Origin: Candidatus Omnitrophota bacterium
GTDB taxonomy: Bacteria > Omnitrophota > Gorgyraeia > Gygaellales > JBFMBJ01
Length of the DNA: 48,055 bases
Assembly: GCA_040755235.1 (NCBI GenBank)
Contig: JBFMBJ010000001.1
Coordinates: 1-48,055 of the forward strand
Direction of reading: 5' to 3'
The translations under genes and the position numbers were made by a program. Below the pieces are notes generated by a model. The model had not been told where the DNA came from, ran no database searches, and worked only from the letters and a program-made list of their open reading frames with translations. The stretch's first letter is position 1. Each line of letters opens with the position of its first letter. Below are positions 2-23,569 of the stretch, piece by piece.

Positions 2-565
2 TATAGGTTTGACGGCAAGAGAATAGTAGTCGGTAGGGTTGAAAACGGCATTCTCAATAAAGGACAATCTATCAAAGCGCTACCCAGTAACCAGAATACA
101 AAAATTAAATCTATAGAGGTGTTTTTGAAAGAAAGCGTCAGAAGCTACCCGGGAGAAAGCATAGGGATTACTACTGAAGACGCCATATTTTTAGAGAGGG
201 GTAATGTAATTTGTGAGCAAGGAAAAGAACCAATTTTGACTGATAATTTCCAGGCCAATGTTTTTTGGATGGCAAAAAACAACTTTGATAAAAACGAGAG
301 AATCACATTAAGGTGCGCGACACAAGAGATTAGTTGTAGGGTAGAAAGGATAGAGGAAAGGATAGATTCTTCATCCCTTGAGGTAATAGAAAAAGATGCA
401 AATGAATTAAGATATCTTGAAGTAGGTAAGGTTATTATAAAGACTAAAAAGCCCATAGCCATAAAGGCTTTTAATGAAATGCAGGAATTGGGCAGGTTTG
501 TATTTGTGCATAATGATAACGTTTGCGCCGGCGGGATTATTACTGGAGTAGAGAGTAGAAAGTAG
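2..565 (+). CDS. cysN: Sulfate adenylyltransferase subunit 1 (CysN-type GTPase), C-terminal part; 5' end lies outside the window
   Basis: The frame is open from nt 2 (YRFDGKRIVVGRVENGILNKGQSIKALPS...). EF-Tu-like domain II/III pattern as in CysN: VFWMAK...LRCATQE...GRFVFV...VCAGGII. The stop TAG 563-565 lies inside the heptad array. Confidence 0.7.
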   Translation, partial: YRFDGKRIVVGRVENGILNKGQSIKALPSNQNTKIKSIEVFLKESVRSYPGESIGITTEDAIFLERGNVICEQGKEPILTDNFQANVFWMAKNNFDKNERITLRCATQEISCRVERIEERIDSSSLEVIEKDANELRYLEVGKVIIKTKKPIAIKAFNEMQELGRFVFVHNDNVCAGGIITGVESRK

Positions 566-576
566 CAAGTAGCGAG
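549..576. repeat. Heptad array TAGAGAG TAGAAAG TAGCAAG TAGCGAG (left flank of 4HB cassette 1)
   Basis: Four consecutive TAGNNAG units. The 7-nt period places TAG in all three + strand frames (549, 556, 563, 570). Confidence 0.9.
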
Positions 577-942
577 ATGGAAAGAAAACCAATAAAAAGC
601 GTTGAAGATTTTGAAGTTTAGCAAAAAGCTGTTGGATTATTCGAAGCTTTTTTAGAAGAAGATTTACCTATATTGAAACAGAATTTTGCTGGGAGGGCTT
701 TAGCGAATAATCAGTTAAGGAGCCTCGATTCTATATGCGCCAATATGGAAGAAGGTTACGAAAGAAAATCAGACAAAGAAATAAAAAATTTCTTTAGAAT
801 ATCTAAGGGCTCAACAGGAGAAGCAAGAGGAAGATATAAAAGATTAAAGAAAATATTACCGGAACAAATAATAAATAAACGCGTAGCTGTTCTAAATGAG
901 ATTAGAGCAATGCTTGAAGCTTTAATTAATAAATGGAAATAA
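577..942 (+). pseudogene. Four-helix-bundle protein (23S rRNA intervening-sequence protein / Avd-like family) with one in-frame TAG
   Basis: ATG 577 gives MERKPIKSVEDFEV, then TAG at 619-621, then QKAVGLFEAF...SICANMEEGYERKS...FFRISKGSTGEA in the same frame. The stop replaces the Tyr of the LEVYQ motif seen in the intact paralogs at 12996 and 14589. The ORF track only shows the TTG-started tail 673-942. Confidence 0.75.
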
Positions 943-944
943 AT

Positions 945-972
945 CTCTCTACTCTCTACTTGCTACTCGCTA
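945..972. repeat. Heptad array CTCTCTA CTCTCTA CTTGCTA CTCGCTA (right flank of 4HB cassette 1)
   Basis: Every unit is the reverse complement of TAGNNAG, so TAG falls in all three - strand frames. It forms a 23/28 imperfect inverted repeat with 549-576. Confidence 0.9.
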
Positions 973-993
973 CTTTTTTAAGAGTTTATACAT

Positions 994-2283
994 ATGGCTT
1001 ATGACACAAAAAGGACCTTTGTATTAGGCATAGATGGTTTTCCTTGTTCTTTTTTAAATGATAAATTAATCCAGGAAAAAATGCCGAAGCTTGCAAGATT
1101 ATGTAATGATAATTCCGGAAAGAGGATGAATTCCGTATATCCCACTGTTTCCTCAGTAGCCTGGACTACCTTTGCCACAGGCAAAAACCCAGCCGGGCAT
1201 AATATCTTCGGATTTGTGGACCGAACCCCTAATCCGTTTCAGATAGAAATCCCTACTGCACGAAGTAGAGGCGCTAAAACAATATGGCAGGAATTATCGC
1301 AAGTAGGGAAAAGGGTAATCGTAATAAATGTGCCCTTGACATATCCGCCAGAGAAAGTAAATGGTATTCTTACATCCTGTTTTTTGTGCACAGACATTTC
1401 CAAATCGTCATATCCTGAACGTTTCTCATCTTACCTCAAAGAAAAGGGGTATGTTATCGATGTAGATGCCAGCCTAGCCAGAGAGAATAAAAGAAAATTT
1501 ATGGACGATCTTTTCTTAGCAATGGATAAGCGTTTTGAGGTTACATTCGAATTAATGGAAAAAGAAAAGTGGGATTATTTTCAATTGCACATTATGGAAA
1601 CTGATAGGTTATTTCATTTTCTTTGGAATGACCTTCTAATGCAAGGCGAATACTATTTGGAGATTATAAATTTCCTTGGAAAATTAGATCAATATATCGA
1701 TAGACTCCAGGATAGTCTTTCTGATAAAGACCGGTTTATTATGCTTTCAGACCACGGTTTCTGCGCCACTAAATATGAAGTTCAATTGAATCGTTGGTTA
1801 GAGCGAGAAGGGTTACTAAAATTTGAAAATGGAAGCGATAGATTAGTTGACTACCATAAGGATTCACTTTGTTATTCGCTTTTGCCAGGCAGGATTTTTG
1901 TTAACTTAAAGGGGAGAGAAGAAAAAGGGACTGTTAAAGAAAGCGAATACGATTACATAAGAGGAGAAATTAGACAAAAACTCCTTAATTTTGCAGATCC
2001 GACATCAGGGGAAAAGATTATTGATAAGGTCCTTTTTCGCGAAGAGATTTATTCAGGTCCTTATATTGAAAATGCGGCTGATATTATTGCCCACCCTAAA
2101 AGAGGGTATGACTTGAAAGGAAGAATGGGAAATATTGAGACATTTGAAAAATCTCATATTAATGGAATGCATACCTATGATGATGCATTCATTGCTGCAA
2201 AAAATTTAAATATTGATTCAGTTTCATCTATTCAAGATATAAAGGATTTAATTTTGAGGGATTTATTAAATGGGTCAGAATAA
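994..2283 (+). CDS. Alkaline-phosphatase superfamily protein, type I phosphodiesterase / nucleotide pyrophosphatase-like
   Basis: GIDGFP metal-site Asp, YPTVSSVAWTTFATGKNPAGHNIFGF nucleophile region, and MLSDHGF motif. Confidence 0.7.
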   Translation: MAYDTKRTFVLGIDGFPCSFLNDKLIQEKMPKLARLCNDNSGKRMNSVYPTVSSVAWTTFATGKNPAGHNIFGFVDRTPNPFQIEIPTARSRGAKTIWQELSQVGKRVIVINVPLTYPPEKVNGILTSCFLCTDISKSSYPERFSSYLKEKGYVIDVDASLARENKRKFMDDLFLAMDKRFEVTFELMEKEKWDYFQLHIMETDRLFHFLWNDLLMQGEYYLEIINFLGKLDQYIDRLQDSLSDKDRFIMLSDHGFCATKYEVQLNRWLEREGLLKFENGSDRLVDYHKDSLCYSLLPGRIFVNLKGREEKGTVKESEYDYIRGEIRQKLLNFADPTSGEKIIDKVLFREEIYSGPYIENAADIIAHPKRGYDLKGRMGNIETFEKSHINGMHTYDDAFIAAKNLNIDSVSSIQDIKDLILRDLLNGSE

Positions 2284-4003
2284 GCCGAGAGTCATAGTAA
2301 TCGGATTAGATGGGGCAACATGGACAAATTTAAAACCATGGATGGGACAAGGATTATTACCTAATCTGAAATTCTTAGTAGATAACGGCGTAAATGGCGA
2401 ACTTAAATCAACTATACCTCCGCAATCAGCCCTTGCTTGGTCATCATTTATGACTGGAGTAAATCCAGGTAAGCATGGAATATTTGGCTTTGTTAAACCG
2501 TTCAAAGATAAACGTTACGAAACAGAGATAGTGACTTCTAGTGACATGAAGACAAAAACCATTTTTGAAATACTCTCAGATAATAAAAAGATATCTGGAG
2601 TAATAAACTTACCTATTACTTATCCACCACTTAAAATCAATGGATTTATGGTTAGTTGCGGTCTCACTACGCCGAGCGTAAATTGTAATTTTACCTATCC
2701 AGATGACCTTTTTGAAAAAAATAGGATAGAGAGAAAAGAATATATTCTTAGTTTAAGGTGGAAGAAATATTCTGAAAAACAAAAAGATAAGTTCTTTTCA
2801 GATTTAATTAAATGCGAAGGAAAAAGAAAAGAAGTGAGTTTTAAGCTTATGAATAAATATGACTGGGATTTGTTTGTAGTTGTATTCGGAGGAACCGATT
2901 GGCTTCAACATTTTTGTTGGCATTATATTGATCCTAAACATTCTAAATATAATCAAGTTGAAGCTAATAAATTCCTTCCTACTATAATAAAATATTATAC
3001 AAAAATAGATTCCATTATTGGAGAGTTTATAAGTCTTGTGGATGAAAATACATCTCTATTTATAATTTCTGACCATGGTTTTGGACCGAGGGAGAAAAGG
3101 ATTGATCTTCATAAATTACTTGAGAACGGAGGGTTTTTGCATTATAGGAAAATGTCTCGTCTGTCAGATGCTTTAGAGAAGAAAGTTAATGCAGCAATTA
3201 ATAAGATAAGGGGCACTTTGCATCGCCACTCTTTTCTTTATAGAAAAGGTAAGGTATTTGCTAAAATAATATATCGTAAGATAAAAGCAAAAACATTAAA
3301 AAATGATTTGCCCAAAGAAAATAGTAAGAGGATTCGGCCAGACATAGAAAGTTCTTACCTACGTAAGATAAATTGGCAAAGAACGTTTTTTTACTCTGGG
3401 TACCCAGATGATACTGGCTATATAAATCTTAAAGGGAGGGAACCCGAAGGAATAATAAATTCAAACGAAGAATATCAGCAAGTAAGAGAGAGGGTTATTA
3501 ATCTTATAGATAGTCTATCCAATCCGGAAAACGGGCGTAAATTGAAAGTAAAAATTTATAAAGGGGAGGAGATTTATAAAGGACCTTATGCGCGAAATGG
3601 TTACGATCTATGTTTTGATATAGAAGATGAAACTTACGATTTACGTTGTGCTGCTAATTTGAAAAATATTTTTAATGATATTAAAACAGCAACTGGTAAA
3701 CATACAAGAGATGGTATCATACTTTGCTATGGGAAAAACTTTAAAAAAGAATATTGTATAAAAGGTGCTCAGATATTAGATATAGCCCCAACCATTTTCT
3801 ACCTTCTCGGCGTTCCTCTTCCTGATTATTTTGACGGTAAGGTGTTAAAAGACGCTATTAGTAATGAATATTTAATTTATAACCCGATCGAACAACAAAA
3901 AATATTTAATGAAAATACTCTAACGGAAAGAGATAATAACACTTTAAATGAGGAAGACACAAGTAAAGTAAAAAAACGCTTAGCAGATTTAGGTTACATA
4001 TAA
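2270..4003 (+). CDS. Alkaline-phosphatase superfamily protein, type I phosphodiesterase-like (paralog of 994-2283 with a large insertion)
   Basis: VIGLDGATW, PPQSALAWSSFMTGVNPGKHGIFGF and IISDHGFG motifs. It overlaps the upstream gene by 14 nt. Confidence 0.7.
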   Translation: MGQNKPRVIVIGLDGATWTNLKPWMGQGLLPNLKFLVDNGVNGELKSTIPPQSALAWSSFMTGVNPGKHGIFGFVKPFKDKRYETEIVTSSDMKTKTIFEILSDNKKISGVINLPITYPPLKINGFMVSCGLTTPSVNCNFTYPDDLFEKNRIERKEYILSLRWKKYSEKQKDKFFSDLIKCEGKRKEVSFKLMNKYDWDLFVVVFGGTDWLQHFCWHYIDPKHSKYNQVEANKFLPTIIKYYTKIDSIIGEFISLVDENTSLFIISDHGFGPREKRIDLHKLLENGGFLHYRKMSRLSDALEKKVNAAINKIRGTLHRHSFLYRKGKVFAKIIYRKIKAKTLKNDLPKENSKRIRPDIESSYLRKINWQRTFFYSGYPDDTGYINLKGREPEGIINSNEEYQQVRERVINLIDSLSNPENGRKLKVKIYKGEEIYKGPYARNGYDLCFDIEDETYDLRCAANLKNIFNDIKTATGKHTRDGIILCYGKNFKKEYCIKGAQILDIAPTIFYLLGVPLPDYFDGKVLKDAISNEYLIYNPIEQQKIFNENTLTERDNNTLNEEDTSKVKKRLADLGYI

Positions 4004-4028
4004 GAAGAATTTAATACGAATGTGAACG

Positions 4029-5231
4029 ATGGAAGAGATAATTGACAAGTTACTTGGATCAAGGCTTAAAAAAACACAGTTTTTATTTCTGCCAGAAGAG
4101 AAATCTAACTTAGATTATGAAAAGGCTCAAGATGAATTCATTGATTATTACAGTAGAGTAGGAGGAGTTTGTTCAATATATAAATATGGAAAAGTTTCTG
4201 TTTGTGGGCTATCAGACATGGATTTTATTGTCGTTTTAGATGACAATTATAGACATAGATATGGAGTCCGATATGATATAAATTATTTTTCTCCATTAAC
4301 TCAATATTTATTGATACATCCACAATTATTTATAAGCAAGAGTCTTATGAAAAATATAGTTTTTTTTGTAGATACTTCAAATTTACAAAAGATATGGGGT
4401 GAAGAAATTATTTTTGAACAACCTACTGAACAAGAATTAAAAGCAATTGCTATCTTATTGCAGATAGATGGATTTATCTTAAGTTTACCTAAATTGGTTT
4501 TAAAACCTTTACTTGAGGAAAAAATAAATTTGAGAGCTATGATTGCAAATATAAATAGGATTAAATATGCTATTGGTAGATTAGAAAGGATCACTAATAA
4601 AAAAAATGAGATTTATAGTATTTTTGTAGAAGATTTTAGTTTATTTAGGAATTCATGGCTTAGAAACAGTAAAGATGAAAATTTAAAGTTGTTAATTATT
4701 TATCTAAAAAAGGCAATAAAAATCATTTATTCATTGATTAAGGACTTCAGCGAGGCTTTAGATAAAGAAAATTACTATAGTAGCGTATTTAAGAATCCTA
4801 GCAGACTTAATATCGGTTTTAAAGTTGCGGAAGATGTCACTTATTTTGAAAAAGACTGGGATGCATCTGGCAGTTTTAATAGTACAATAAATTTATTTTT
4901 TCAATCAAGAAGATATATGCAATTTTTACCCCTAAATTTTTCTTATCACTTATTTCAGTATACGAAAATTAATAATAAGTTCGCAAATTATATAAAGGAA
5001 AGACTATTCTTAAATCAAGATTTAGATATTAAAAGTAATAATCAATTAGAGATTAAAAAGGCAGAACTTATAAATAAGCATATTGAATTTTTAGAGAATG
5101 GCAGAATTGATGGAAATGCAATTTTCTGCCATCTGGGTTATCGTAGCAATATCAAAAGATTTCCTGGTGAATATAGATACAGCAATTATAAACGCTGGAT
5201 TGAGAGAAGATTAAATTTCATAAAGAGTTAA
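4029..5231 (+). CDS. Hypothetical protein with a possible Pol-beta-type nucleotidyltransferase motif
   Basis: A long ORF inside the operon. KYGKVSVCGLSDMDFIVVLDD resembles the G[SG]...DxD nucleotidyltransferase signature. No other family was recognised. Confidence 0.35.
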   Translation: MEEIIDKLLGSRLKKTQFLFLPEEKSNLDYEKAQDEFIDYYSRVGGVCSIYKYGKVSVCGLSDMDFIVVLDDNYRHRYGVRYDINYFSPLTQYLLIHPQLFISKSLMKNIVFFVDTSNLQKIWGEEIIFEQPTEQELKAIAILLQIDGFILSLPKLVLKPLLEEKINLRAMIANINRIKYAIGRLERITNKKNEIYSIFVEDFSLFRNSWLRNSKDENLKLLIIYLKKAIKIIYSLIKDFSEALDKENYYSSVFKNPSRLNIGFKVAEDVTYFEKDWDASGSFNSTINLFFQSRRYMQFLPLNFSYHLFQYTKINNKFANYIKERLFLNQDLDIKSNNQLEIKKAELINKHIEFLENGRIDGNAIFCHLGYRSNIKRFPGEYRYSNYKRWIERRLNFIKS

Positions 5232-5236
5232 AAGAT

Positions 5237-6415: not shown

Positions 6416-6421
6416 ATTCTG

Positions 6422-8330: not shown

Positions 8331-8355
8331 GATGTATTAAAAAGTCAAAAGTTAT

Positions 8356-10482: not shown

Positions 10483-12909
10483 ATGACTAAGATTTGTTTC
10501 ATAATTGATAATTTAAAGATAGCGGGTGCGCAGAGGCATCTTTTAAGATTGACCAAAGGATTAACCAACAGGGGGTATTCTCCAGAGGTTATTTCCCTTG
10601 GCATTAATGATGAAAATTTAATTAAAGAGATAAAGGCGCCATTGGCTACATTTAAAATGGATTGTATCTGGAGGATGAGTTTTTGGCTGAATTTTATACA
10701 GTTAATTAAATTTATTTCTAAGCAAAGGCCGGTAATAGTCCATACTTACCTTAATACTTCTAATGTCTTTGGGGTTTTATCTGCTAAAATTGCTAAGGTT
10801 CCCATTATTTTCTCCTCGCGCAGAGATTTAGGCCAATTCCGCTCGAGGTTAATTGGCTTGTTAGAGCGTTTTACTGCACATCTTAGCGATAAAGTTGTTT
10901 GTGTTTCCAATGCTGTTCAAAATCATGTTATTGATTCAGAGCGAATTAGTAGAGAGAAAACGGCTGTTATATATAATGGAGTAGACGTAGATAGTTTGCG
11001 AGTTAACGAGTTGACGAGTTGGCGAGTTAGAAAAGAAATCGGAATAGGTGAAAATGAATTAGCAGTTGGAATGATAGCGACGATGGACAGGGAAGAAAAG
11101 GGGCATAAGGAATTCATTGAAGCAGCGGGTTTGGTTGTAAAAGAAATTCCGAACGTCAAATTTCTGCTTATCGGCGACGGTTTTCTTCGTCAAAAGTTAG
11201 AAAACGCAATACGTGATACCTGCCTTGCCGGCAGGCAGGCGCATGACGCAATACGAGGCAAAGTTTTATTTCTTGGTAAACGTAACGGCATACCAGAATT
11301 ATTATCCACAATGGATGTGTCGGTGAACGCTTCATATTCAGAAGGAATGTCCAATACAATTTTAGAGTCTATGGCAGCTGGAGTGCCAGTAGTAGCTACA
11401 GCAATAGATGGCAATCTCGAAACTGTCAAAAGCTTACAGTTTGATTACAGTGATTTAGATAAAGATTACAGTGATAAAAATTGTGCAACTGGGATACTCG
11501 TGCCGCCAAAAGAGCCACAAGCTATGGCAAAAGCTATTATAAAGATACTTAAAGATAAGGAATTAGCTGTGAAGATGGGTGAAAACGCGAGGCGATTAGT
11601 TTACGAAAAATTCTCTCTTGAAACAATGGTGAATAATTACGCTAAACTTTATCAAGATTTATCCGCGCCAATCCGCGTCCAAAACAATCCGCGCCAATCC
11701 GCGTCCACAGTGGGTTATATCGTTTCTCTTTTTCCCTGTTGGTCAGAAACCTTTATCTTAAATGAAATAATAGAGTTAAAGAGAAAAGGTATTGAAGTGA
11801 CTATATTCTCTATAAGAAAAGATTTGGAAGCATTTATTCAAGAGAAGTCAAAACTGCTTATAAAAAATACAATATATCCAGAAAAGCCAGGTGTATTTAG
11901 GTCATTTGTATTTTGGGCTGTAAGAAAACCAGTGACATTGCTTTCAATTTTCTGGTTGGTTGTCAGTAAAAGATATTCAAGCTCAAAAGTTCTACTTAAG
12001 AACATCTGGTGTATTTTTGTCGGTTGCTACTTTGCTACTATTGTAAAAAAAGAGAATATCAAAAACCTCCATGCACATTTTGCAACCTACCCAACTTTAG
12101 TAGCTTTGGTCATATCAAGATTGACTAAGATTAGTTATACTTTTACCAATCATGCTCATGACATATTCTTAGAAAAAGCTCTTTTAAAAGAAAAATCCAG
12201 AGATGCAAAAGCCATAGTTGCTATCTCAAATTATAATAAGCAATATCTGGATAATATTTGTCAAAATGGAGTTATAGATAAGACGCACGTCATTCATTGC
12301 GGCTTAGATTTAGCTGAATTTGTTAATTTAAACGTCAAGCATAAAGATAATACGATTTTGAGTATCGGCAGATTAACCAAAATGAAGGGTTTTGAATATC
12401 TTATTAAAGCTTGCAATCAAATTAAAAATCGCCTGCCTGTCCAATGCCGCATAATTGGCGATGGTCCTTTGAATGATGAATTGGAAAGGTTAATTATTAA
12501 TTTAGGAGTAAGGAGTAGCGTAAAATTAAAAGGGGTAACGGACAACAGTGAGATTAAGCAATTATTACAGGAAAGTGCTGTATTTATCATGTCCAGCGTC
12601 TGGGATGAGCAGGATGGCCAAGATGGCATCCCGATCGTATTAATGGAGGCAATGGCAGCAGGCGTGCCGGTGATAGGTTCAAATATTTCAGGCATACCCG
12701 AATTGATCCAGGATGGTCAGACAGGGCTGTTGGTTGAGCCAGGCAATGTTGTAGATTTGGCAAAGAAGATTGAGCTTTTGTTGAACGATAAAGATTTGCA
12801 GGCTCGCTTAGCTAAAGCAGGCAGGCGTAAGGTTGAAGAGGAATTTGATATTCATAAGAGTGTAGAGAAGCTAATTGAGGTATTTAACTTATCGAGCTGT
12901 CATACATAG
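10483..12909 (+). CDS. Two GT4 glycosyltransferase modules in one ORF (tandem fusion through a repeat linker)
   Basis: Module 1 has SEGMSNTILESMAAGVPVVATAIDGNLE. Module 2 starts like a complete WcaL-type GT (VGYIVSLFPCWSETFILNEIIELKRKGIEV) and has DGIPIVLMEAMAAGVPVIGSNISGIPELIQDGQTGLLV. The junction is the 21-nt direct repeat at 11661-11707. An in-frame GTG at 11710 could be an internal start. Confidence 0.8.
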   Translation: MTKICFIIDNLKIAGAQRHLLRLTKGLTNRGYSPEVISLGINDENLIKEIKAPLATFKMDCIWRMSFWLNFIQLIKFISKQRPVIVHTYLNTSNVFGVLSAKIAKVPIIFSSRRDLGQFRSRLIGLLERFTAHLSDKVVCVSNAVQNHVIDSERISREKTAVIYNGVDVDSLRVNELTSWRVRKEIGIGENELAVGMIATMDREEKGHKEFIEAAGLVVKEIPNVKFLLIGDGFLRQKLENAIRDTCLAGRQAHDAIRGKVLFLGKRNGIPELLSTMDVSVNASYSEGMSNTILESMAAGVPVVATAIDGNLETVKSLQFDYSDLDKDYSDKNCATGILVPPKEPQAMAKAIIKILKDKELAVKMGENARRLVYEKFSLETMVNNYAKLYQDLSAPIRVQNNPRQSASTVGYIVSLFPCWSETFILNEIIELKRKGIEVTIFSIRKDLEAFIQEKSKLLIKNTIYPEKPGVFRSFVFWAVRKPVTLLSIFWLVVSKRYSSSKVLLKNIWCIFVGCYFATIVKKENIKNLHAHFATYPTLVALVISRLTKISYTFTNHAHDIFLEKALLKEKSRDAKAIVAISNYNKQYLDNICQNGVIDKTHVIHCGLDLAEFVNLNVKHKDNTILSIGRLTKMKGFEYLIKACNQIKNRLPVQCRIIGDGPLNDELERLIINLGVRSSVKLKGVTDNSEIKQLLQESAVFIMSSVWDEQDGQDGIPIVLMEAMAAGVPVIGSNISGIPELIQDGQTGLLVEPGNVVDLAKKIELLLNDKDLQARLAKAGRRKVEEEFDIHKSVEKLIEVFNLSSCHT
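10993..11030. repeat. In-frame octamer array (NNCGAGTT x4), copy a
   Basis: agtttgcgagttaacgagttgacgagttggcgagttag encodes SLRVNELTSWRVR. It is 35/38 identical to 13945-13982 in a paralogous GT4, whereas the flanking coding DNA is much less similar. Confidence 0.85.
11204..11255. repeat. In-frame ACGCAATACG pair (42-nt spacing) around a GC-rich hairpin
   Basis: acgcaatacg occurs at 11204-11213 and 11246-11255. The central cctgcc-ttgcc-ggcagg lies at 11219-11235. The segment encodes AIRDTCLAGRQAHDAIRG in a GT4 linker that is normally shorter. Confidence 0.8.
11443..11475. repeat. In-frame GATTACAGTGAT direct repeat, 21-nt period
   Basis: Perfect 12-mers at 11443-11454 and 11464-11475 encode DYSD twice, inside the GT4 E...G loop. 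The reverse complement atcactgtaatc occurs at 18878-18889. Confidence 0.85.
11661..11707. repeat. Perfect 21-nt direct repeat (atccgcgccaatccgcgtcca x2, 5-nt spacer) at the GT4-GT4 junction
   Basis: Units at 11661-11681 and 11687-11707. Each unit is itself two ATCCGCGNCA decamers. The region is translated as SAPIRVQNNPRQSAS. Confidence 0.9.
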
Positions 12910-12991
12910 TCATAGGTAGTCATAAAATGGTCATACAATTGTAAAAGATACTATAAGTATATTGTAATAAATAGTCATACATTGTAAAAAG
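12899..12991. repeat. GTCATA array (left flank of 4HB cassette 2)
   Basis: GTCATA at 12899, 12909, 12919, 12930 (10-11 nt phasing) and 12974. gtcatacaattgtaaaag and gtcatacattgtaaaaag are near duplicates. Stops occur in all three + frames, and the stop of the upstream GT (12907) lies inside the array. Confidence 0.85.
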
Positions 12992-12995
12992 GAGA

Positions 12996-13385
12996 ATGGA
13001 ATTGGCGGGAGATATAAGAGATTTTGATGATTTGGAAGTATATCAGCTGGCTTTAGAATTGGCAGATTGGATATATGATTTAACAAGCAATTTTCCTAGT
13101 GAAGAAAGGTTCAATGTTACCTCGCAGATAAGGGATGCTGCAACTTCAATTGGCGCAAATATAGCCGAAGGCTATGGTCGGTTTCACTATAAAGAAAACA
13201 TTCAATTTTGTAGACAAGCAAGAGGCTCTTTATCTGAGACAAAGCACTTTATGATTTTTAGCAATAAACGCAAGTATATTTCTGATGATATTTACAAAGA
13301 ATTTTTACAAAAATACAAGCAATTACAAATAAAAATTAACAATTATATTAATTCAATTGGTAAGAAGAATAGTGACGATGTATGA
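12996..13385 (+). CDS. Four-helix-bundle protein (23S rRNA IVS protein / Avd-like family)
   Basis: DFDDLEVYQLALEL..., RDAATSIGANIAEGYGRFHYKENIQFCRQARGSLSETKH. SD aaaggag lies 5 nt upstream. Confidence 0.85.
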   Translation: MELAGDIRDFDDLEVYQLALELADWIYDLTSNFPSEERFNVTSQIRDAATSIGANIAEGYGRFHYKENIQFCRQARGSLSETKHFMIFSNKRKYISDDIYKEFLQKYKQLQIKINNYINSIGKKNSDDV

Positions 13386-13417
13386 CAACATTTGACAATG
13401 GTATGACAATATATGAC
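13381..13417. repeat. TATGAC array (right flank of 4HB cassette 2; inverse of the GTCATA array)
   Basis: TATGAC at 13381, 13402 and 13412, plus TTTGAC at 13391 (10-11 nt phasing). The 4HB stop TGA 13383-13385 lies in the first unit. Confidence 0.85.
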
Positions 13418-14548
13418 GATTCACGTGCTTCGGCGCGAAAAATTAACATCCTGCACGTGATTTGGTCCTTAGAAAAAGGCGGCGCGGAAAGATTCTTGGT
13501 TTTGCTGGTTAAAAATTTTGACCAAAGCCGTTTCAATTCCATTGTTTGTTGCCTTAATTGGAAAGGCGAATGGGCAAGCGAACTTGAGGAAAAAGGAATC
13601 AAGGTTATTGCCTTAAATAAAAAAGGTAAGTTCGACATCTGTGTAATCTATAGAATAATCTGTGTAATCAGACAATATAAAATTGATATTGTAAATACTC
13701 ATCTTTGGGCAGCAGATTGCTTAGGAAGGGTTGCGGCTATTTTTGGGGGAGTGCCCATAATTATAAGCACAGTCCAAAATGTAGATATCTGGAAGAAGTT
13801 TTGGCATAAAATCATAGATAAGATGTTGGCGAACCGAACAACCAAATTTATTGCAGTTTCAAAAGCAGTTAAGGAGTTTTTGATTAATACAGAAAAGATT
13901 CCTGAAGAAAAAATTGAGATAATACCGAATGCGATTGATGCAGAAAGTTTGCGAGTTAACGAGTTGGCGGGTTTGCGAGTTAGAGAAGATTTAGGGATTA
14001 AAAACGAAGAGATAGTGCTGACTGTAATTGGAAGATTGGTTGAACAAAAGGGCCATAAATATTTGTTTGAAGCCTTGAGTATGCTGGATGGCAGGTATAG
14101 AGTGAAATTACTGGTGGTTGGTGATGGGCCGCTTAGAGAAAGTTTACAGTTTAAAGTTAACAGTTTACAGTTAGAGAATAAAATTCAATTCTTAGGGCAG
14201 AGAAGAGACATGGCAGAAATATTTAATGCGAGTGATGGTGTGATTTTGCCTTCGCTTTATGAGGGGTTGCCTGTAAGCATTTTAGAGGCGATGGCTGTTG
14301 GTAAGCCTGTAATCGCAACAGATGTTGGCGGCACTTGCGAACTTGTTAAAGATGGAGAAACTGGATTTTTGGCACAAGCAAAAAACAGCAAAAGCTTAGC
14401 ATCTAATATAGAAAAACTTTTAACTTCACCAGATAAAGGAAAAAAAATGGGAGAGAGAGGCAAGGAATTGGTTAATAATGCCTTTTCTATACAGGCTATA
14501 GTTAAAAAAACAGCAGATTTATATCTCTCACTTCTCGGTAACGGTTAG
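13382..14548 (+). CDS. Family 4 glycosyltransferase
   Basis: INILHVIWSLEKGGAE..., YEGLPVSILEAMAVGKPVIATDVGGTCELVKDGETGFL. The first ~15 codons (MTTFDNGMTIYDD) are a translation of the TATGAC array, so the true start is probably downstream (ATG 13403 or later). Confidence 0.8.
   Translation: MTTFDNGMTIYDDSRASARKINILHVIWSLEKGGAERFLVLLVKNFDQSRFNSIVCCLNWKGEWASELEEKGIKVIALNKKGKFDICVIYRIICVIRQYKIDIVNTHLWAADCLGRVAAIFGGVPIIISTVQNVDIWKKFWHKIIDKMLANRTTKFIAVSKAVKEFLINTEKIPEEKIEIIPNAIDAESLRVNELAGLRVREDLGIKNEEIVLTVIGRLVEQKGHKYLFEALSMLDGRYRVKLLVVGDGPLRESLQFKVNSLQLENKIQFLGQRRDMAEIFNASDGVILPSLYEGLPVSILEAMAVGKPVIATDVGGTCELVKDGETGFLAQAKNSKSLASNIEKLLTSPDKGKKMGERGKELVNNAFSIQAIVKKTADLYLSLLGNG
13637..13669. repeat. 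In-frame ATCTGTGTAATC direct repeat, 21-nt period
   Basis: Perfect 12-mers at 13637-13648 and 13658-13669 encode ICVIYRIICVI. Confidence 0.85.
13945..13982. repeat. In-frame octamer array (NNCGAGTT-type), copy b
   Basis: agtttgcgagttaacgagttggcgggtttgcgagttag encodes SLRVNELAGLRVR. It is 35/38 identical to 10993-11030. Confidence 0.85.
14141..14172. repeat. In-frame AGTTTACAGTT direct repeat, 21-nt period
   Basis: Units at 14141-14151 and 14162-14172 encode SLQFKVNSLQL. They share the TTACAG core with 11433-11475. Confidence 0.8.
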
Positions 14549-14581
14549 GGTAACGAAGCCAGTATCGGTAAGGGTAATGGC
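14535..14581. repeat. Flank A of 4HB cassette 3 (GGTAACG/GGTAAGG-type low-complexity array)
   Basis: tcggtaacggttagggtaacgaagccagtatcggtaagggtaatggc. It contains the GT stop TAG 14546-14548 and stops in all + frames. An inverted copy lies at 18716-18763. Confidence 0.85.
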
Positions 14582-14588
14582 AAAGTAA

Positions 14589-14984
14589 ATGGAAAATAAA
14601 AAACGAATAACAAGTTTTAAAGATTTAGAAGTATACCAGAATAGCTACAGAGCTATGCTAAGTGTAATGAAAGAGATTGTTCCGAAATTACCCGAGAGAG
14701 AAAAATACGACTTGGTAGATCAATTGAGTAGAGCCTGTAAGTCAATACCCAGATTGATAGCAGAAGGTTATGCTAAGCGGCACCAAAAGGCAGGTTTCCA
14801 GAAATATATTGATGATGCGATGAGCGAGTCTAATGAAATGGTTGTTAGTTTAAGCGAGTCGCGAGATATATACTTTAATTATATAGATGTGAAACAGTGC
14901 GATGAATTAATTGATATTTATGATAAGACAGGCAGGCAGCTTTATAAATTAGCTGAAAGTTGGACAAATTTTAAAAGACGATAG
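14589..14984 (+). CDS. Four-helix-bundle protein (23S rRNA IVS protein / Avd-like family)
   Basis: SFKDLEVYQNSYRA..., LSRACKSIPRLIAEGYAKRHQKAGFQKYIDDAMSESNE. Confidence 0.85.
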   Translation: MENKKRITSFKDLEVYQNSYRAMLSVMKEIVPKLPEREKYDLVDQLSRACKSIPRLIAEGYAKRHQKAGFQKYIDDAMSESNEMVVSLSESRDIYFNYIDVKQCDELIDIYDKTGRQLYKLAESWTNFKRR

Positions 14985-15040
14985 ACGTAACCCAAGGACG
15001 AAACGGGCATCCTAACCTTAACCTAAAAACGTTGCCATAA
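14983..15040. repeat. Flank B of 4HB cassette 3
   Basis: agacgtaacccaaggacgaaacgggcatcctaaccttaacctaaaaacgttgccataa. Its reverse complement matches 18579-18636 at 54/58 positions. Confidence 0.9.
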
Positions 15041-15057
15041 CGTATAGTGGTATTCAC

Positions 15058-16293: not shown

Positions 16294-16311
16294 CTTATTT
16301 GTCTGAATTTG

Positions 16312-16326
16312 TCCCGCCCTTTTGGC
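16312..16326. repeat. Left arm of a perfect 15-bp inverted repeat around the GIY-YIG gene
   Basis: tcccgcccttttggc is the exact reverse complement of 16601-16615. Confidence 0.95.
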
Positions 16327-16337
16327 TGGAGGTAGGT

Positions 16338-16595
16338 ATGCATTATATTTATTTGTTAAAAAGCGAGAAAGACAACTATATTTATATTGGCAATACCAAT
16401 GATTTAGAAAGAAGATTGGTTGAGCATAATAGCGCTAACAATACAGCTACTAAGAAGCATAGACCTTTTAAATTAGTTTATTACGAAGCTTATTTAGATA
16501 AGAGGGATGCTTTAGATAGAGAAAATAAATTAAAACATCACGGAAGCGTTATTGGACATCTGAAGAAACGATTAAAATATAGTTTATCTTGTTAA
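16338..16595 (+). CDS. Small stand-alone GIY-YIG (URI-domain) nuclease family protein
   Basis: HYIYLLKSEKDNYIYIGNTNDLERRLVEHNS. SD ggagg at 16328-16332. The ORF-track start (TTG 16299) only adds a translation of the left IR arm. Confidence 0.85.
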   Translation: MHYIYLLKSEKDNYIYIGNTNDLERRLVEHNSANNTATKKHRPFKLVYYEAYLDKRDALDRENKLKHHGSVIGHLKKRLKYSLSC

Positions 16596-16600
16596 ATTTC

Positions 16601-16615
16601 GCCAAAAGGGCGGGA
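16601..16615. repeat. Right arm of the perfect 15-bp inverted repeat around the GIY-YIG gene
   Basis: gccaaaagggcggga, 5 nt after the TAA stop. Confidence 0.95.
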
Positions 16616-16628
16616 TTAATTCGTAGAC

Positions 16629-16685
16629 GCTCCGACATAGCGTCGGAGCTACAATTTACGAAAGCAATAGCGAATCGTAAATTGT
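16629..16685 (+). other. Two adjacent perfect hairpins (8-bp stem with 5-nt loop; 11-bp stem with 13-nt loop)
   Basis: gctccgac-atagc-gtcggagc (16629-16649) and acaatttacga-N13-tcgtaaattgt (16651-16685). There is no U-tract, so they are not classical terminators. Confidence 0.6.
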
Positions 16686-16707
16686 CTACTCATTAAGGGG
16701 GTGTCAA

Positions 16708-18543
16708 ATGAACAAAATAAAAGTTTTTAGTGGTTGCTTGTTTGTTTTATTGTTAAGTGTTTTTATTGGTACGGTAAATGCACAGGATACTGCAGTAAGG
16801 ACTGCGCCGGCTAATGTGCAGGAGAGAACTGCAGTCAGGACTCCTACAGCCACTTCACAAACCAGCACTGCTGTCAGGACCTCTCCGGTCACTCCGCAAG
16901 CATATACTGCTGAGAGGGATATTCCGATTAGTTCGCAAATTGAAAGCAGTATTAGAACTTTCTACGTAGATGGATTATCTGGGAGTGATACTACAGGCAA
17001 CGGTTCATCTTCTAAACCTTGGAAAACTATTAAATTTGCTGTAAACAAACTTGCGCCAGGTGATGTGCTTTCTATTATGGGAGGTATATACAAAGAGCGC
17101 ATAACTATTACAAAAAGTGGGAGCGATACGGGTCGGATTACTATTGGTGCTTTCGGCAATGGAGAAGTTATTATTGATTGCTCTCCGAAGATCGGAGAAT
17201 GGACGCCATACACCGAAACTACAATCAAAGGAATTTATAAAGCAACCTGTTCCTTTAAGCCCACTGCTGTAGTTGTGAACGAACAGCCAATTTTTCCTGC
17301 CTTTTCTCTCACTGATATTAAAGAAAATGAATGGTATTACAATGCCACTTTAAAGATTATTTATCTTTATCCCAAAGCAGGGATTATACCTACGAATTCC
17401 AATGTCGGCGTGATTTCTGATGACCAGTATAGCGACGGGATACTTATTAATAATGCTCATTACATCACTCTTTATGGCCTGACAGTTCGATATGCAGGAG
17501 GAAGAGGAATATCTATTTTAGGAAATTACACTGAAATCAGGAGATGTAATGTGAAATTTAACGGCCATACCGGTATAAACATTTTTGCTTACGGAACTAC
17601 AAGATCTACTGACACTATTGTAGCAGACAATAATATCTATCACAATTTTTTAAGGAACTGGCCGCGCGGACGTTATAAATGGGGCGGTTGGGGAGGCGGC
17701 GCAATTAGTCACGGAACGCCTAAAACACAATATATTAATAATGTTTCACATAAAAATGGTGGAGAGGGACTGCTTGCCTATCGCGGAAGCGCTGGTGGGA
17801 CTGTTTGGAAAAATAACATTGTCTATGATAACTGGAGCGTTAATATTTACATAGATAATCAACCAAATGGCCTAATCGATGGAAATATAATTTTTAGCAG
17901 CGAGCCGGACACACACGATTTGTACCATAATGGTGATACAAATCCAGGAGATAATAGTAATTTAAAACGACTAAGGCCCCAGGGAATTATGACCGCCGAT
18001 GAAAAATACGGCGTAACTCCAACCGCAACTTTAAATAATGTGCGCATTATCAATAATACTATTGTTAATTGCCGAAAGGGTATTGACCACTATGCAAGCG
18101 CGCCTGGGTCTGGTTTGAAAAATGTTTATGTAGGTAATAACACTATAGTCGTTCCCAACGCTACCTCAATTGGAGAACCTTTTAGTGGGTTAAAAGTACC
18201 TTACAATAGTGGTAATAACCTGAACGTGGTTTTTGAGAATAATCGCATATACGCCACCAATGCAAGCGCATATCTGCTATATCTGGGAACTGATCCGAAA
18301 GTTACAACAGTATCTGCCATGACTCTTAAGGATTTAACTTTTAAGGGCAACACTTGGTATCACGCAACGCGGCCAAAGGCTTTTCACGTTGGTCCGACTT
18401 ACCATACAACTTATGATTTTGATTTTAATGGTTGGCACAATATTTGTAAAACTAACTGCATAGCCGATGTGTATAAAAATATCGCTACGCTGATTCAGCC
18501 GATATTAGACAGGATAGCATCAATTAAAGCAACTTATAAATAG
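16708..18543 (+). CDS. Secreted right-handed parallel beta-helix protein (pectate-lyase fold; polysaccharide lyase/hydrolase-like)
   Basis: Signal peptide LLLSVFIGTVNA, TAVRT-type low-complexity repeats, then beta-helix turns (RCNVKFNGHTGINIF, DNNIYHN, NNIVYDNWSVNIYIDN, NNTIVNC). Confidence 0.7.
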   Translation: MNKIKVFSGCLFVLLLSVFIGTVNAQDTAVRTAPANVQERTAVRTPTATSQTSTAVRTSPVTPQAYTAERDIPISSQIESSIRTFYVDGLSGSDTTGNGSSSKPWKTIKFAVNKLAPGDVLSIMGGIYKERITITKSGSDTGRITIGAFGNGEVIIDCSPKIGEWTPYTETTIKGIYKATCSFKPTAVVVNEQPIFPAFSLTDIKENEWYYNATLKIIYLYPKAGIIPTNSNVGVISDDQYSDGILINNAHYITLYGLTVRYAGGRGISILGNYTEIRRCNVKFNGHTGINIFAYGTTRSTDTIVADNNIYHNFLRNWPRGRYKWGGWGGGAISHGTPKTQYINNVSHKNGGEGLLAYRGSAGGTVWKNNIVYDNWSVNIYIDNQPNGLIDGNIIFSSEPDTHDLYHNGDTNPGDNSNLKRLRPQGIMTADEKYGVTPTATLNNVRIINNTIVNCRKGIDHYASAPGSGLKNVYVGNNTIVVPNATSIGEPFSGLKVPYNSGNNLNVVFENNRIYATNASAYLLYLGTDPKVTTVSAMTLKDLTFKGNTWYHATRPKAFHVGPTYHTTYDFDFNGWHNICKTNCIADVYKNIATLIQPILDRIASIKATYK

Positions 18544-18578
18544 GGCGTCACAGCCGCCTGTCGTGTACTACTTCACAA

Positions 18579-18636
18579 TTATGGCAACGTTTTTAGGTTA
18601 CGGTTAGGATGCCAGTTTCGTGGTTGGGTTACGTCT
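18579..18636. repeat. Inverted copy of flank B
   Basis: ttatggcaacgtttttaggttacggttaggatgccagtttcgtggttgggttacgtct is the reverse complement of 14983-15040 at 54/58 positions. Confidence 0.9.
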
Positions 18637-18715
18637 TTCGTATTGAGAAAAATTATTCTAACTGCATTAATTTCAAGAATGTTGATTGCTTTTAAGCTTT
18701 ATATTTTTTCACGTA
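18637..18715 (-). pseudogene. Decayed remnant of a four-helix-bundle gene (about 20 N-terminal codons with a stop, the rest deleted)
   Basis: The minus strand reads gtgaaaaaatataaagcttaaaagcaatcaacattcttgaaattaatgcag. This aligns with the 5' end of 14589 (atggaaaataaaaaacgaataacaagttttaaagatttagaagtataccag). It sits between the inverted copies of flanks A and B. Confidence 0.55.
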
Positions 18716-18763
18716 GCCGTTACCTTAAACCGATACCGGCTTCGTTACCCTTGCCGTTACCGA
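18716..18763. repeat. Inverted copy of flank A
   Basis: gccgttaccttaaaccgataccggcttcgttacccttgccgttaccga is the reverse complement of 14535-14581, with a few mismatches and a 1-nt indel. Confidence 0.85.
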
Positions 18764-18891
18764 AATACTGAAGAACTACACTTCGGCAGGCAAGTTCCGC
18801 CCTTGATTGCAGAGATTAATAAAAACAGATTACTACGATTAAAACTAGAGAATGTAATCTCTGGAATCTTATGAAAAATCACTGTAATCAT

Positions 18892-19596
18892 ATGTTAAAA
18901 ATCTTAATGTATCATTCTGTCGGTTCGCTGAACTTAAGCGAAGTCGGCACAGAGCTTTATTCTGTCTCTGAAGAGAACTTCCGTCAGCAAATGAATTTTT
19001 TGCGCAATGCGCACGACGCAATACACAATACGCTAATAACCTTCGATGACGGCCTCCTCGACAACTACACAACTGCTTTTCCGATTCTTAAGGAGTTTGA
19101 CATTAAAGCATATTTTTTTATTCTAACTTCTAAGGTCAGGGAAGAGGGGTACATGAATTGGGAACAGATTAAGGAGTTGCATAATGCAGGCATGACAATT
19201 GGTTCACACGGGATGACGCACAGACTTTTAACTGAATTAAGCGAGAATGAATTATATTATGAATTATCCCAGTCTAAGAAAATACTTGAAGATAATTTAA
19301 GCCAACCTGTTGAGAATTTTTCAATTCCCAGAGGATTTTGTAATAAAAGAATAGAAGAAGCAGCAAAGAAAATTGGCTACAAAGCAATTTTTACTTCTAA
19401 TATCAAGGATAACAATGGGTTTAGAATCGGCAGAATCCCGGTAAAACGCGATTGGGATCTTAATCATTTTAAAAGTGTTTTGAATAATGGACTGTCTCCA
19501 AGAGAAAAAGTGGAGGAATTTGTTAAGCGTATAAGCAAGGAATTCCTCGGCGCAAGGGTTTACGATAAGATTAGGAGTAGGATTCTTAGTAGATAA
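18892..19596 (+). CDS. Polysaccharide deacetylase (NodB homology domain)
   Basis: ILMYHSV, ITFDDGLLDNY, GSHGMTH. The start was moved to ATG 18892 because the 7 upstream codons translate a repeat. Confidence 0.8.
   Translation: MLKILMYHSVGSLNLSEVGTELYSVSEENFRQQMNFLRNAHDAIHNTLITFDDGLLDNYTTAFPILKEFDIKAYFFILTSKVREEGYMNWEQIKELHNAGMTIGSHGMTHRLLTELSENELYYELSQSKKILEDNLSQPVENFSIPRGFCNKRIEEAAKKIGYKAIFTSNIKDNNGFRIGRIPVKRDWDLNHFKSVLNNGLSPREKVEEFVKRISKEFLGARVYDKIRSRILSR
19002..19033. repeat. In-frame copy of the GCGCAATRCGCACGACGCA...CAATACG dispersed repeat
   Basis: 27/32 identical to the intergenic copy at 23597-23628. It encodes RNAHDAIHNTL. The same AHDAI peptide is encoded at 11236-11256 in a GT4. 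Confidence 0.8.
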
Positions 19597-19598
19597 GA

Positions 19599-19646
19599 GT
19601 CATAAGTAGTCATAAGGTAGTCATACAATGGTCATAAATTGTCATA
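19599..19646. repeat. GTCATA array (left flank of the toxin-antitoxin cassette)
   Basis: GTCATA at 19599, 19609, 19620, 19631 and 19641 (10-11 nt phasing). It is visibly alignable with 12909-12945. Confidence 0.9.
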
Positions 19647-19711
19647 CGATTGTATGAGGCGAGCGTTACATAAATTCAGACTCGATATCTTAAAAATCCT
19701 TACTTTCGTCC

Positions 19712-19740
19712 TTGACGATTTCCTTACTTTGTGCTATACT
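19712..19740 (+). promoter_or_regulatory. Sigma-70-type promoter of the AbrB/toxin pair
   Basis: TTGACG (19712-19717), 17-nt spacer, TATACT (19735-19740). tccttacttt is directly repeated at 19697 and 19721 and is a possible operator. Confidence 0.6.
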
Positions 19741-19761
19741 TGTTACTGGAGGTGAACAAAG

Positions 19762-20022
19762 ATGACAATTACAATGACAGCAAAGAATCAAATAACCATA
19801 CCTAAGAAGATCACAAATGCTTTGGGCTTAGGGAAGGGGTCTATGTTCGAGGTAGAGGTCTCTAGAGATGGGATAGAGCTTATTCCTCTGGAGACAAAAG
19901 AAAGGCAGTTCACAGATGAGGAATACGTGAAATTAGAGACCCTTGCAGCCAAAGAAAAGGGGAAAGAAAAACATGTAACAAAAAGGTTCATCGATAATTT
20001 AAAAAAGGGAAAATCTAATTAA
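19762..20022 (+). CDS. AbrB/MazE/SpoVT-family antitoxin
   Basis: MTAKNQITIPKKITNALGLGKGSMFEVEV (swapped-hairpin motif). It overlaps the downstream gene by 1 nt (TAATG). Confidence 0.75.
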   Translation: MTITMTAKNQITIPKKITNALGLGKGSMFEVEVSRDGIELIPLETKERQFTDEEYVKLETLAAKEKGKEKHVTKRFIDNLKKGKSN

Positions 20023-20330
20023 TGTCTTTACGCCTTTATTACAGGCCTTCTTTTAAAAGAAGCATCAAGCGTTTAGGATATGAACAGAAGAAAACAGTAG
20101 GACTGATAATTGAATCTTTAGCTGTTTATTATTCTCGTGAGTGTAATCTGCTAGAGGCACAAAAGATAGCACCACGATTTTTTTATAAACAACTAAGAAA
20201 GCCCTATTATGAAGCCGGTATCGAAGGAACCATCCGAGTGATTATAAGACGAGAGGGTGAAAATTGTATTGTAGTATTAGCCGGGAATCATGACCAAATA
20301 AAACAATTTCTGGCCAGCGTACAGTGTTGA
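20022..20330 (+). CDS. Putative type II toxin (RelE/ParE-like small basic protein)
   Basis: Size, position after the AbrB antitoxin and translational coupling support the call. YRPSFKRSIKRLGYEQKKTVGLIIESL resembles RelE/ParE N-termini. The family assignment is tentative. Confidence 0.5.
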   Translation: MSLRLYYRPSFKRSIKRLGYEQKKTVGLIIESLAVYYSRECNLLEAQKIAPRFFYKQLRKPYYEAGIEGTIRVIIRREGENCIVVLAGNHDQIKQFLASVQC

Positions 20331-20373
20331 AGAAGTACTGCCAAAGGATAAAATAACCCCTCAGAAATCTCCC

Positions 20374-20412
20374 CATGACAATCTTGTGACAACAATATGA
20401 CAACCTTATGAC
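20374..20412. repeat. (C/T)ATGAC array (right flank of the toxin-antitoxin cassette)
   Basis: catgaca at 20374, tgtgac at 20385, tatgac at 20396 and 20407 (11-nt phasing). It is alignable with 13381-13417. Confidence 0.85.
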
Positions 20413-20421
20413 AATATATCG

Positions 20422-23566: not shown

Positions 23567-23569
23567 TAG

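Follow-up and report, generated by a model that had tools for sequence, protein, structure and literature searches.

Small genes enclosed by inverted repeat arrays in a polysaccharide operon of Omnitrophota: candidate mobile cassettes of the intervening sequence type

The window analyzed here is the 48,055-nt contig JBFMBJ010000001.1 of a Candidatus Omnitrophota metagenome-assembled genome (MAG; GCA_040755235.1, forward strand), in which five small cargos are placed between the genes of a polysaccharide locus, each of them enclosed by two arms that are reverse complements of each other. We interpret these units, with moderate confidence, as mobile cassettes of the intervening sequence (IVS) type that reside in protein-coding operons and whose arms would serve both as recognition sites and as RNase III-cleavable stems. 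A unit consists of one short open reading frame (ORF), which usually encodes a four-helix bundle (4HB) protein of the family PF05635/TIGR02436 and is closed flush by imperfect inverted arms, which are often built from four to five tandem units of 7–8 nt or contain a 6-nt core that recurs at intervals of 10–11 nt. The units insert co-directionally and exactly at gene junctions, where the host gene that precedes them often ends at a stop codon of the unit, and they leave ORF-less derivatives that resemble miniature inverted-repeat transposable elements (MITEs).

The cassettes of the polysaccharide locus

The host locus is a co-directional exosortase/PEP-CTERM extracellular polysaccharide (EPS) locus that extends from approximately 100 to 30,000 of the window and encodes glycosyltransferases of families GT2 and GT4, Wzy, a polysaccharide deacetylase, the exosortase EpsH, EpsI, and several PEP-CTERM proteins. 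The initial annotation had described five cassettes with reverse-complementary arms in this locus, and every item it listed was found where it had been placed. The cassettes, the cargo-less array pair, the MntA-like insertion, and the arrays within GT4 genes described below are on the plus strand; one inverted copy is on the minus strand. The cargo of cassette 1 (577–942) is a 4HB pseudogene (PF05635/TIGR02436) with an in-frame TAG at codon 15. Its left arm (546–576) is a heptamer array GTAGNNA of 4.4 copies, with AGTAG occurring four times at 547–572 with a period of 7, and its right arm (945–974) consists of 4.3 complementary heptamers (87% complementary; CTACT four times at 949–974, period 7). 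The host stop codon (563–565) lies inside the left arm. Cassette 2 contains an intact 4HB gene (12996–13385; TIGR02436 E = 1e-32, PDB 2GSC E = 1e-12) between a left arm (12893–12943) of GTCATA cores spaced 10–11 nt apart, four of them at 12899–12935 and with an extra unit at approximately 12973–12985, and a right arm (13373–13423) of TGAC cores with the same spacing (TGACAA/TATGAC four times at 13373–13417). The stop codon of the upstream glycosyltransferase (12907–12909) is part of the left arm, and the right arm extends into the glycosyltransferase ORF that follows, as its 5' end is annotated. In cassette 3, an intact 4HB gene (14589–14984, PF05635/TIGR02436) is enclosed by arm A (14535–14586), which carries GGTAA four times at 14537–14577 and harbors the host stop codon (14546–14548), and by the TAACC-rich arm B (14985–15039).

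The two remaining cassettes carry other cargos. Cassette 4 holds a small gene of the GIY-YIG nuclease family (16338–16595) between two 22-nt inverted repeats (16305–16326 and 16601–16622), which are 91% complementary with a perfect 15-nt core and belong to a GGTCGAATTTGTCCCGCCCTTTTGGC type that is conserved around GIY-YIG homologues elsewhere. Cassette 5 (cargo at 19762–20330) carries an AbrB/MazE antitoxin gene (19762–20022) and a 102-amino-acid partner (20022–20330), upstream of which a promoter-like TTGACG...TATACT was read by eye. Its left arm (19593–19653; GTCATA five times at 19599–19646) is of the cassette 2 type and begins 2 nt past the host stop codon, and its right arm (20365–20424; TGACAA four times at 20376–20414) abuts the ATG of a glycosyltransferase gene at 20422. 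The cargo families proposed earlier were borne out by hidden Markov model searches for the three 4HB cargos including the pseudogene (PF05635 E-values of 4e-35, 1e-19, and 4e-11; TIGR02436 scores above the cut-off), for the GIY-YIG gene, and for the antitoxin, which scores above the cut-offs of PF04014 and TIGR01439. The 102-amino-acid partner had no match in Pfam, NCBIfam, or PADLOC, the 4HB proteins of the window matched no defense family in PADLOC, and an exact-sequence look-up of the cassette 2 protein returned no recorded entry.

Among themselves, the three 4HB proteins of the window share only about 30% identity, and a separate arm type accompanies each of them. Cassettes 2 and 5, on the other hand, have a common arm type (40 of 45 positions upstream and 33 of 39 downstream) around different cargos, a 4HB gene and a putative toxin–antitoxin pair, so that a single arm family carries more than one kind of gene. 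The element of cassette 3 is present a second time as an inverted, MITE-like copy without ORF on the minus strand (18580–18763). This copy retains both arms at approximately 90–92% identity to those of cassette 3 (31 of 34 plus 11 of 14 positions for arm A, 57 of 62 for arm B) around a 69-nt interior. A cargo-less pair of heptamer arrays of the NNNGTAT and CGCAATA types is located between the exosortase and EpsI genes (23561–23627).

In the predicted minimum-free-energy folds of the full-length units, the arms pair with each other in all five cassettes, with 24 to 44 arm–arm pairs per cassette, and the z-scores of the arm–arm duplexes against dinucleotide shuffles are −2.7, −4.3, −3.5, −7.6, and −6.0. 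The arrays of the cassettes are detected by a k-mer cluster scan and Tandem Repeats Finder. In total, 12 short tandem arrays of the window qualified, compared with a mean of 0.43 (maximum 3) in 40 shuffled versions. That AT-rich intergenic DNA might produce such arms by chance or through low complexity deserved consideration, as the G+C content of the window is 32–40%, several of the long AT-rich inverted-repeat pairs (for example I2, I3, and I6) do look random, and I5 lies inside a PEP-CTERM coding segment. An artefact of this kind is nevertheless so improbable that we regard it as refuted by the shuffle controls, by the recurrence of the same architecture in dozens of unrelated genomes, and by the conservation of the arms across insertion contexts. 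A further cassette that had been considered at 27341–28703, bounded by I5, was dropped because its left arm lies within that coding segment.

Recurrence in unrelated operons and empty sites in relatives

The element of cassette 3 provides the clearest case for mobility. A search with its protein gave more than 2,100 hits at E < 1e-10, the best 120 of which are 75–85% identical, and at five loci examined (loci are denoted by L numbers) the 4HB proteins of this clade are 79–84% identical to the protein of the window. The gene and its arms recur in at least six unrelated operon contexts, namely between genes for a glycosyltransferase and Wzy, IMPDH-like and dnaE, mlaF and mlaD, radical-SAM and Tc-toxin, LOG and purF, and PRTase and PHP, which is in line with the mobile element suggested by the initial annotation. 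In every examined context the gene is co-directional with its neighbors, the gaps to which are 45–71 nt in three contexts and up to approximately 400 nt upstream in L110 and L118. When the contexts are aligned at the nucleotide level, the arms align and the sequence outside of them is unrelated. The consensus of the upstream arm is GGTNACGGTTAGGGTAACGAAGCCCGTATCGGTTAAGGTAACGGTAACGTA|ATG and that of the downstream arm TAG|ACGTAACC..ACGAAACGGGCATCGTAACCGTAGCC; arm A is conserved in L098, L107, L110, and L115, and arm B is likewise conserved across insertion contexts. The GIY-YIG cargo with its own conserved arms is a parallel family, as its homologues in three contexts have a common arm pair GGTCGAATTTGTCCCGCCCTTTTGGC/GCCAAAAGGGCGGGATTTAATTCG, and one variant pair is altered on both sides with its complementarity retained.

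Cassettes of more than one type can be present at one locus. In L124, two GIY-YIG cassettes (235–486 and 1689–1946) flank an exbB-exbD pair on one contig, and in L125 a GIY-YIG cassette and a 4HB gene (1501–1758 and 3202–3258) are found within one radical-SAM/PqqD operon. Such operons can collect several cassette types. In L002, a locus from a MAG labelled as Clostridia, a 4HB protein of the cassette 2 type is 76% identical to that of the window and the GT4 glycosyltransferase downstream is approximately 45% identical to its counterpart in the window (12900–14550), so that the cassette is far better conserved than its host context.

Presence/absence polymorphism, which the initial annotation had expected in related genomes, is seen in three relatives of the locus. 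A metagenome locus (L081) is syntenic with 7.4–23.8 kb of the window at about 65% amino-acid identity, a second syntenic locus (L082) shows about 50% amino-acid identity, and L122 is closer to the window than either; the relatives with empty sites are too diverged for exact junctions. Both L081 and L082 are without any of the cassettes of the window, and the flanking host genes there overlap or are 3–110 nt apart. In L081 the site of the inverted copy is empty as well, and this locus is also without the cargo-less hairpin, the MntA/HepT-like gene pair at 21538–22747, and three arrays located inside a GT4 gene of the window. L122 shares the Wzy|beta-helix insertion of the GIY-YIG cassette with the window and has no cassette 3, at the site of which a hairpin element of approximately 55 nt of the ACGCAATACG type is found instead; an element of this type is present in the window within the GT4 reading frame (approximately 11204–11255). 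The cassettes are insertions that are gained or lost as whole units.

These observations bear on another explanation, according to which the arms are regulatory hairpins of the host, similar to repetitive extragenic palindromic (REP) sequences, that stabilize or partition the EPS mRNA, with genes that lie in the loops incidentally and relatives that have undergone deletions. The position of the cassettes exactly at intercistronic junctions and their co-directional orientation would suit such a role, as would the strong purifying selection on the 4HB protein and the persistence of a cassette at a single position, HlyD|EmrB, in four MAGs of the Campylobacterota. We consider this explanation improbable all the same. 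The same element occurs with its arms in at least six unrelated operons and as an inverted ORF-less copy in the same window, one of the cargos is a pseudogene, and some arrays lie inside coding regions. Moreover, L081, L082, and L122 miss different subsets of the cassettes, and host genes overlap at empty sites.

The architecture extends far beyond the Omnitrophota. The cassette 2 protein was searched against 185,579 species genomes, and the best 80 of 490 confirmed loci were kept. They include members of the Omnitrophota, Planctomycetota, Verrucomicrobiota, Campylobacterota, Bacteroidota, Chlorobiota, Desulfobacterota, Nitrospirota, and Chloroflexota, lineages of the Candidate Phyla Radiation, and one Mesorhizobium isolate. 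In a census of 76 usable 4HB genes (upstream search distance 150 nt), a tandem array was located upstream of 52 genes (68%) and downstream of 46 (61%), and 35 genes had arrays on both sides. The periods of these arrays are nearly all 7 or 8 nt, with some of 10–11 nt, the median copy number is 4.3, and the density of arrays beside 4HB genes is about 12 times that of the remaining locus sequence. The upstream array ends a median of approximately 20 nt before the start codon, and the downstream array starts a median of 9 nt past the stop codon. For 27 of the 35 loci with arrays on both sides, the unit consensus sequences are reverse-complementary with at most one mismatch, compared with 41% (maximum 63%) in 500 permuted pairings and 3% in the direct orientation. 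The arm duplexes of 37% of the 4HB genes have z-scores below −3, and both neighbors are co-directional for 62 of 69 genes (90%). Cargo-less array pairs, 10–50 nt apart, are present in the same loci.

Some downstream arrays are greatly expanded, with 23.8 copies of ACCAATCA in L073 (3388–3577) and 12.3 copies of AATGACC in L043 (3380–3465), which suggests active slippage or expansion. The array units were also inspected for coding consequences. According to the initial annotation, the left arms contain stops in every frame. The arms of cassettes 1–3 do include stop codons of host genes, but among 57 upstream arrays only 23 have stops in all three frames. With an ATG in 18 of 48 downstream arrays, the idea that the arms are selected to supply stops and starts was rejected. 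An avoidance of periods that are multiples of three was likewise set aside, as the dominance of 7 and 8 nt may have a coding or a mechanistic cause.

Sequence and pairing of the arms, and further arrays in the window

The initial annotation had argued that selection acts on the structure of the arms rather than on their sequence. This part of its interpretation is not supported, since arm sequence is conserved within each protein clade, whereas its view of the cassettes as discrete IVS-like mobile units that are polymorphic and reuse their arms is. In the cassette 3 clade, the identity of the arms is 0.77–0.94, compared with 0.50–0.72 at third codon positions, with synonymous divergence (dS) saturated and a ratio of nonsynonymous to synonymous substitution (dN/dS) of 0.05–0.09 for the 4HB gene. 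In the cassette 2 clade, eight cassettes, which the record titles assign to five or more taxonomic groups, have GTCA cores upstream and TGAC cores downstream with a spacing of 10 or 11 nt (mean 10.5), and on each side the opposite motif is almost absent. Complementarity is maintained as well, which is concluded from a concerted change among the HlyD|EmrB orthologues of the Campylobacterota, in which both arms switched together from an ATTGGTNT 8-mer to a TAGTCAT 7-mer type. The available cassette 3 arms are few and vary little, so that a comparison for compensatory changes was not informative.

The steps that we infer, namely that RNase III cleaves the stem in mRNA, that the 4HB pentamer binds the arms, and how units insert, would be arranged as follows. 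The cassette ORF has no room for a promoter of its own and would therefore be transcribed from the host operon. Within the operon transcript, the arms would pair into a stem of approximately 25–45 bp, which RNase III may cut by analogy with the IVSs of rRNA. This cleavage would release the cassette RNA and gate cargo translation, with the cistrons on either side still usable, and insertions would for that reason be nearly neutral. The arms would also be sequence-specific recognition sites that are inherited together with the protein clade; their most likely binding partner would be the 4HB pentamer that the cassette encodes or a mobility enzyme supplied in trans.

Several results weigh against this interpretation. 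The signature of G:U pairs that might be expected of an RNA stem is absent, as the transition mismatches of arms scoring at least 40 comprise 12 of the G:U type and 27 of the A:C type, and the energies of sense and antisense arm duplexes do not differ. The 10.5-nt phasing and the conserved ends that resemble terminal inverted repeats (TIRs) are no less compatible with recognition of DNA than with an RNA stem. Inspection of the junctions of cassette 3 type copies revealed no target-site duplication, which some insertion sequence (IS) families do not produce, and domains of transposases, integrases, or reverse transcriptases were not found in the window or the cassettes. The cassette at HlyD|EmrB is retained in the four MAGs, which are labelled as different taxa, at a 4HB identity of 59–76%, and from this single site despite the divergence of the protein it follows that movement can be rare. 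The predicted stem of the cargo-less site at 23561–23627 is weak (z = −1.3), so that this hairpin of the initial annotation is present, and extra relative to L081, but folds poorly. Finally, in L036 (4073–5184) and L054 (3351–4370) from Sulfurovum/Sulfurimonas MAGs, several ATTGGTN/ACCAATN arrays interrupt a gene identified by eye as GDP-fucose-synthase-like; they are in frame and are translated as TNxQ-rich peptides. Some complementary arrays in these loci bracket host coding sequence, where cleavage would be harmful.

A purely DNA-level transposable element, whose arms are TIRs with phased subterminal sites for a transposase acting in trans or for the 4HB protein, which would then be a mobility factor of a new kind, and whose RNA stem is incidental, would account for several of these points. 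It would also explain that the ends are conserved at unrelated insertion sites, that MITE-like derivatives without ORF exist, that complementarity is strand-symmetric without an excess of G:U, and that the conservation of the arms exceeds that of synonymous sites. It remains an unlikely alternative that we nevertheless take seriously. Neither a transposase-like domain nor a target-site duplication has come to light, such an element needs neither the 90% co-orientation nor a stem that is flush with a promoterless ORF, and the homologous elements in rRNA are processed as RNA. Phasing and strand symmetry favor the DNA-level element; the promoterless co-oriented ORFs and the rRNA precedent favor a role of the RNA.

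Besides the cassettes, the window contains arrays within genes as well as other insertions. One GT4 gene carries four copies of CGAGTTNN (10999–11029), the hairpin element ACGCAATACG-palindrome-ACGCAATACG (approximately 11204–11255), two copies of GATTACAGTGAT (11443–11475), and ATCCGCG arrays (11661–11703), the last three of which are extra relative to L081. A second GT4 gene has CGAGTT three times at 13952–13981 and AGTTTAC 4.6 times at 14141–14172. These arrays within GT4 genes are in frame and have periods of 7–8 nt or longer repeated units, and at the position that matches approximately 11200 of the window, L081 has a different heptamer array (AAGAGCT, four copies). The element of about 55 nt, which is found in L122 (100–200) and in the window (11204–11255), comprises ACGCAATAC, the GC-rich palindrome CCTGCCTTGCCGGCAGGCAGG, and ACGCAATACG; it looks like a separate miniature mobile element, and the motif CAATACG is common to it and the cargo-less site at 23561–23627. 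Between a GT2 and the exosortase gene, the insertion that is absent in L081 (21538–22747) has a heptamer array NGGACGA of five copies at its left edge (21538–21572), for which no right-hand partner was found. The insertion contains an MntA-like nucleotidyltransferase gene (21779–22357; PADLOC PDC-M05A, E = 5e-31) and a short HEPN-like ORF (22506–22751; PDC-M05B) that is probably truncated. A solitary CACGAATT array (27397–27439; about four copies with a period of 10–11) lies between two PEP-CTERM genes with no complementary partner nearby.

Relation to rRNA intervening sequences and other repeat systems

The closest counterpart of the cassettes is the IVS of 23S rRNA. In Coxiella, the IVS carries three to four copies of GACAGAT just upstream of the S23p ORF, the number of which varies among strains, and the heptamers are contained in a 28-bp stem that is cut by RNase III in vitro (PMC4990558). 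The rRNA IVSs of Coxiella and Leptospira (PMC4990558) and the cassettes have in common an ORF of PF05635 in the loop of a stem of terminal inverted repeats, heptamers directly upstream, and a selfish character with an ORF that is able to decay. As the initial annotation had proposed, the cassettes are IVS-like. A 4HB or other small ORF lies flush inside a predicted long stem; in the window, this is the case at the junctions of exosortase/EPS genes. The cassettes differ in that they are located between, and occasionally within, the genes of protein-coding operons and not in an rRNA helix. Their neighbors are protein-coding, and the Rfam search returned no family, rRNA included, for the window or for the 20 loci whose arm duplexes are strongest. 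The arms of the cassettes are commonly whole arrays of 7–8-nt units or phased 6-mers, and the cassettes also occur with putative toxin–antitoxin and GIY-YIG cargos, as ORF-less copies, and as arrays within genes. RNase III cleavage is known for the IVS of Coxiella (PMC4990558), and the cassette stems are known from predicted folds. Given the same 4HB family, the upstream heptamers, the stem cut by RNase III, and the pentameric homologue, the rRNA IVS appears to be one of the landing sites that this element family uses. Searches of the accessible literature on IVS and 4HB proteins, tandem heptamers, and small dispersed repeats returned no account of cassettes of this kind outside rRNA.

The REP doublets forming hairpins (REPINs) and their REP-associated tyrosine transposases (RAYTs), together called REPtrons (PMC3116915), also consist of a small gene between inverted short repeats, and the same repeat occurs as gene-less intergenic hairpins. 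A single small gene flanked by inverted repeats, gene-less hairpins, and a repeat type that tracks the protein clade are thus shared with the cassettes, but the flanked protein here is a four-helix bundle of PF05635 and not a Y1 (HUH) transposase, and the repeats are tandem arrays instead of single palindromes. We know of no catalytic role for the 4HB protein. It is conceivable, though on balance we doubt it, that the 4HB pentamer is itself the sequence-specific partner of the arms, with one subunit per repeat unit, and drives the spread or upkeep of the array hairpins in the manner of a RAYT–REPIN pair. The proposal of one subunit per unit derives from the arrays of about four to five units and the homopentameric protein: the 4HB homologue of Xanthomonas forms a homopentameric ring (PMC4990558), and PDB 2GSC comprises five chains.

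With MITEs and their parent ISs, the cassettes share terminal inverted arms, ORF-less derivatives (one inverted copy in the window), and insertion at unrelated sites (at least six contexts) in either orientation. In contrast to them, the cassettes are without recognizable transposase, their cargos being 4HB, GIY-YIG, and putative toxin–antitoxin genes, and without detected target-site duplication, and they are strongly co-oriented at gene junctions. They are not integron cassettes, as the arms lie on both sides of the ORFs, the units are scattered among host genes, and no integrase is encoded in the window. The short tandemly repeated repetitive (STRR) heptamers and small dispersed repeats of cyanobacteria are reportedly intergenic tandem heptamers that are sometimes found inside genes, as are the arrays described here. 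The STRR unit is said to be TTGGTCA, a rotation of GTCATTG/ATTGGTC, and units of the latter type were observed beside 4HB genes in L026, L052, L054, and L057. To our knowledge, STRRs have not been linked to 4HB genes or to inverted pairing. The Avd protein of diversity-generating retroelements is a homologous pentameric four-helix bundle whose partners are nucleic acid and a reverse transcriptase. Compared with it, the 4HB proteins score far below the cut-offs (25.6 and 18.1 bits against 80 for NF033474, 20.4 against 40 for PF22296), and neither a reverse transcriptase nor template and variable repeats are present in the window.

For gene annotation, the cassettes are a source of artefacts, since their arms rewrite the ends and starts of host genes and arrays are translated inside enzymes. 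They also suggest a way in which genes that are translationally coupled can accommodate a selfish insert between them, with the operon left intact. As each protein clade has its cognate arms, concrete clade-specific sequences are available that can be tested against the protein, and cultured carriers exist in Mucilaginibacter (M. flavus, M. terrigena, and M. frigoritolerans; L061, L068, and L075), Pedobacter (sp. UC225_65; L058), Zunongwangia (Z. pacifica; L021), and Mesorhizobium (sp. KR9-304; L066). The rRNA IVS and the S23p/4HB protein have, as far as we know, been without function or origin since about 1990. Here, they would be recast as a special landing site of a much larger family that dwells mainly in operons. 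If the partnership of 4HB protein and arms were true, it would constitute a new protein–repeat mobile system that spans many phyla, of which the rRNA IVS, the ORF-less hairpins, the arrays within genes (the GT4 genes of the window, L036, and L054), and possibly the STRR heptamers would be manifestations.

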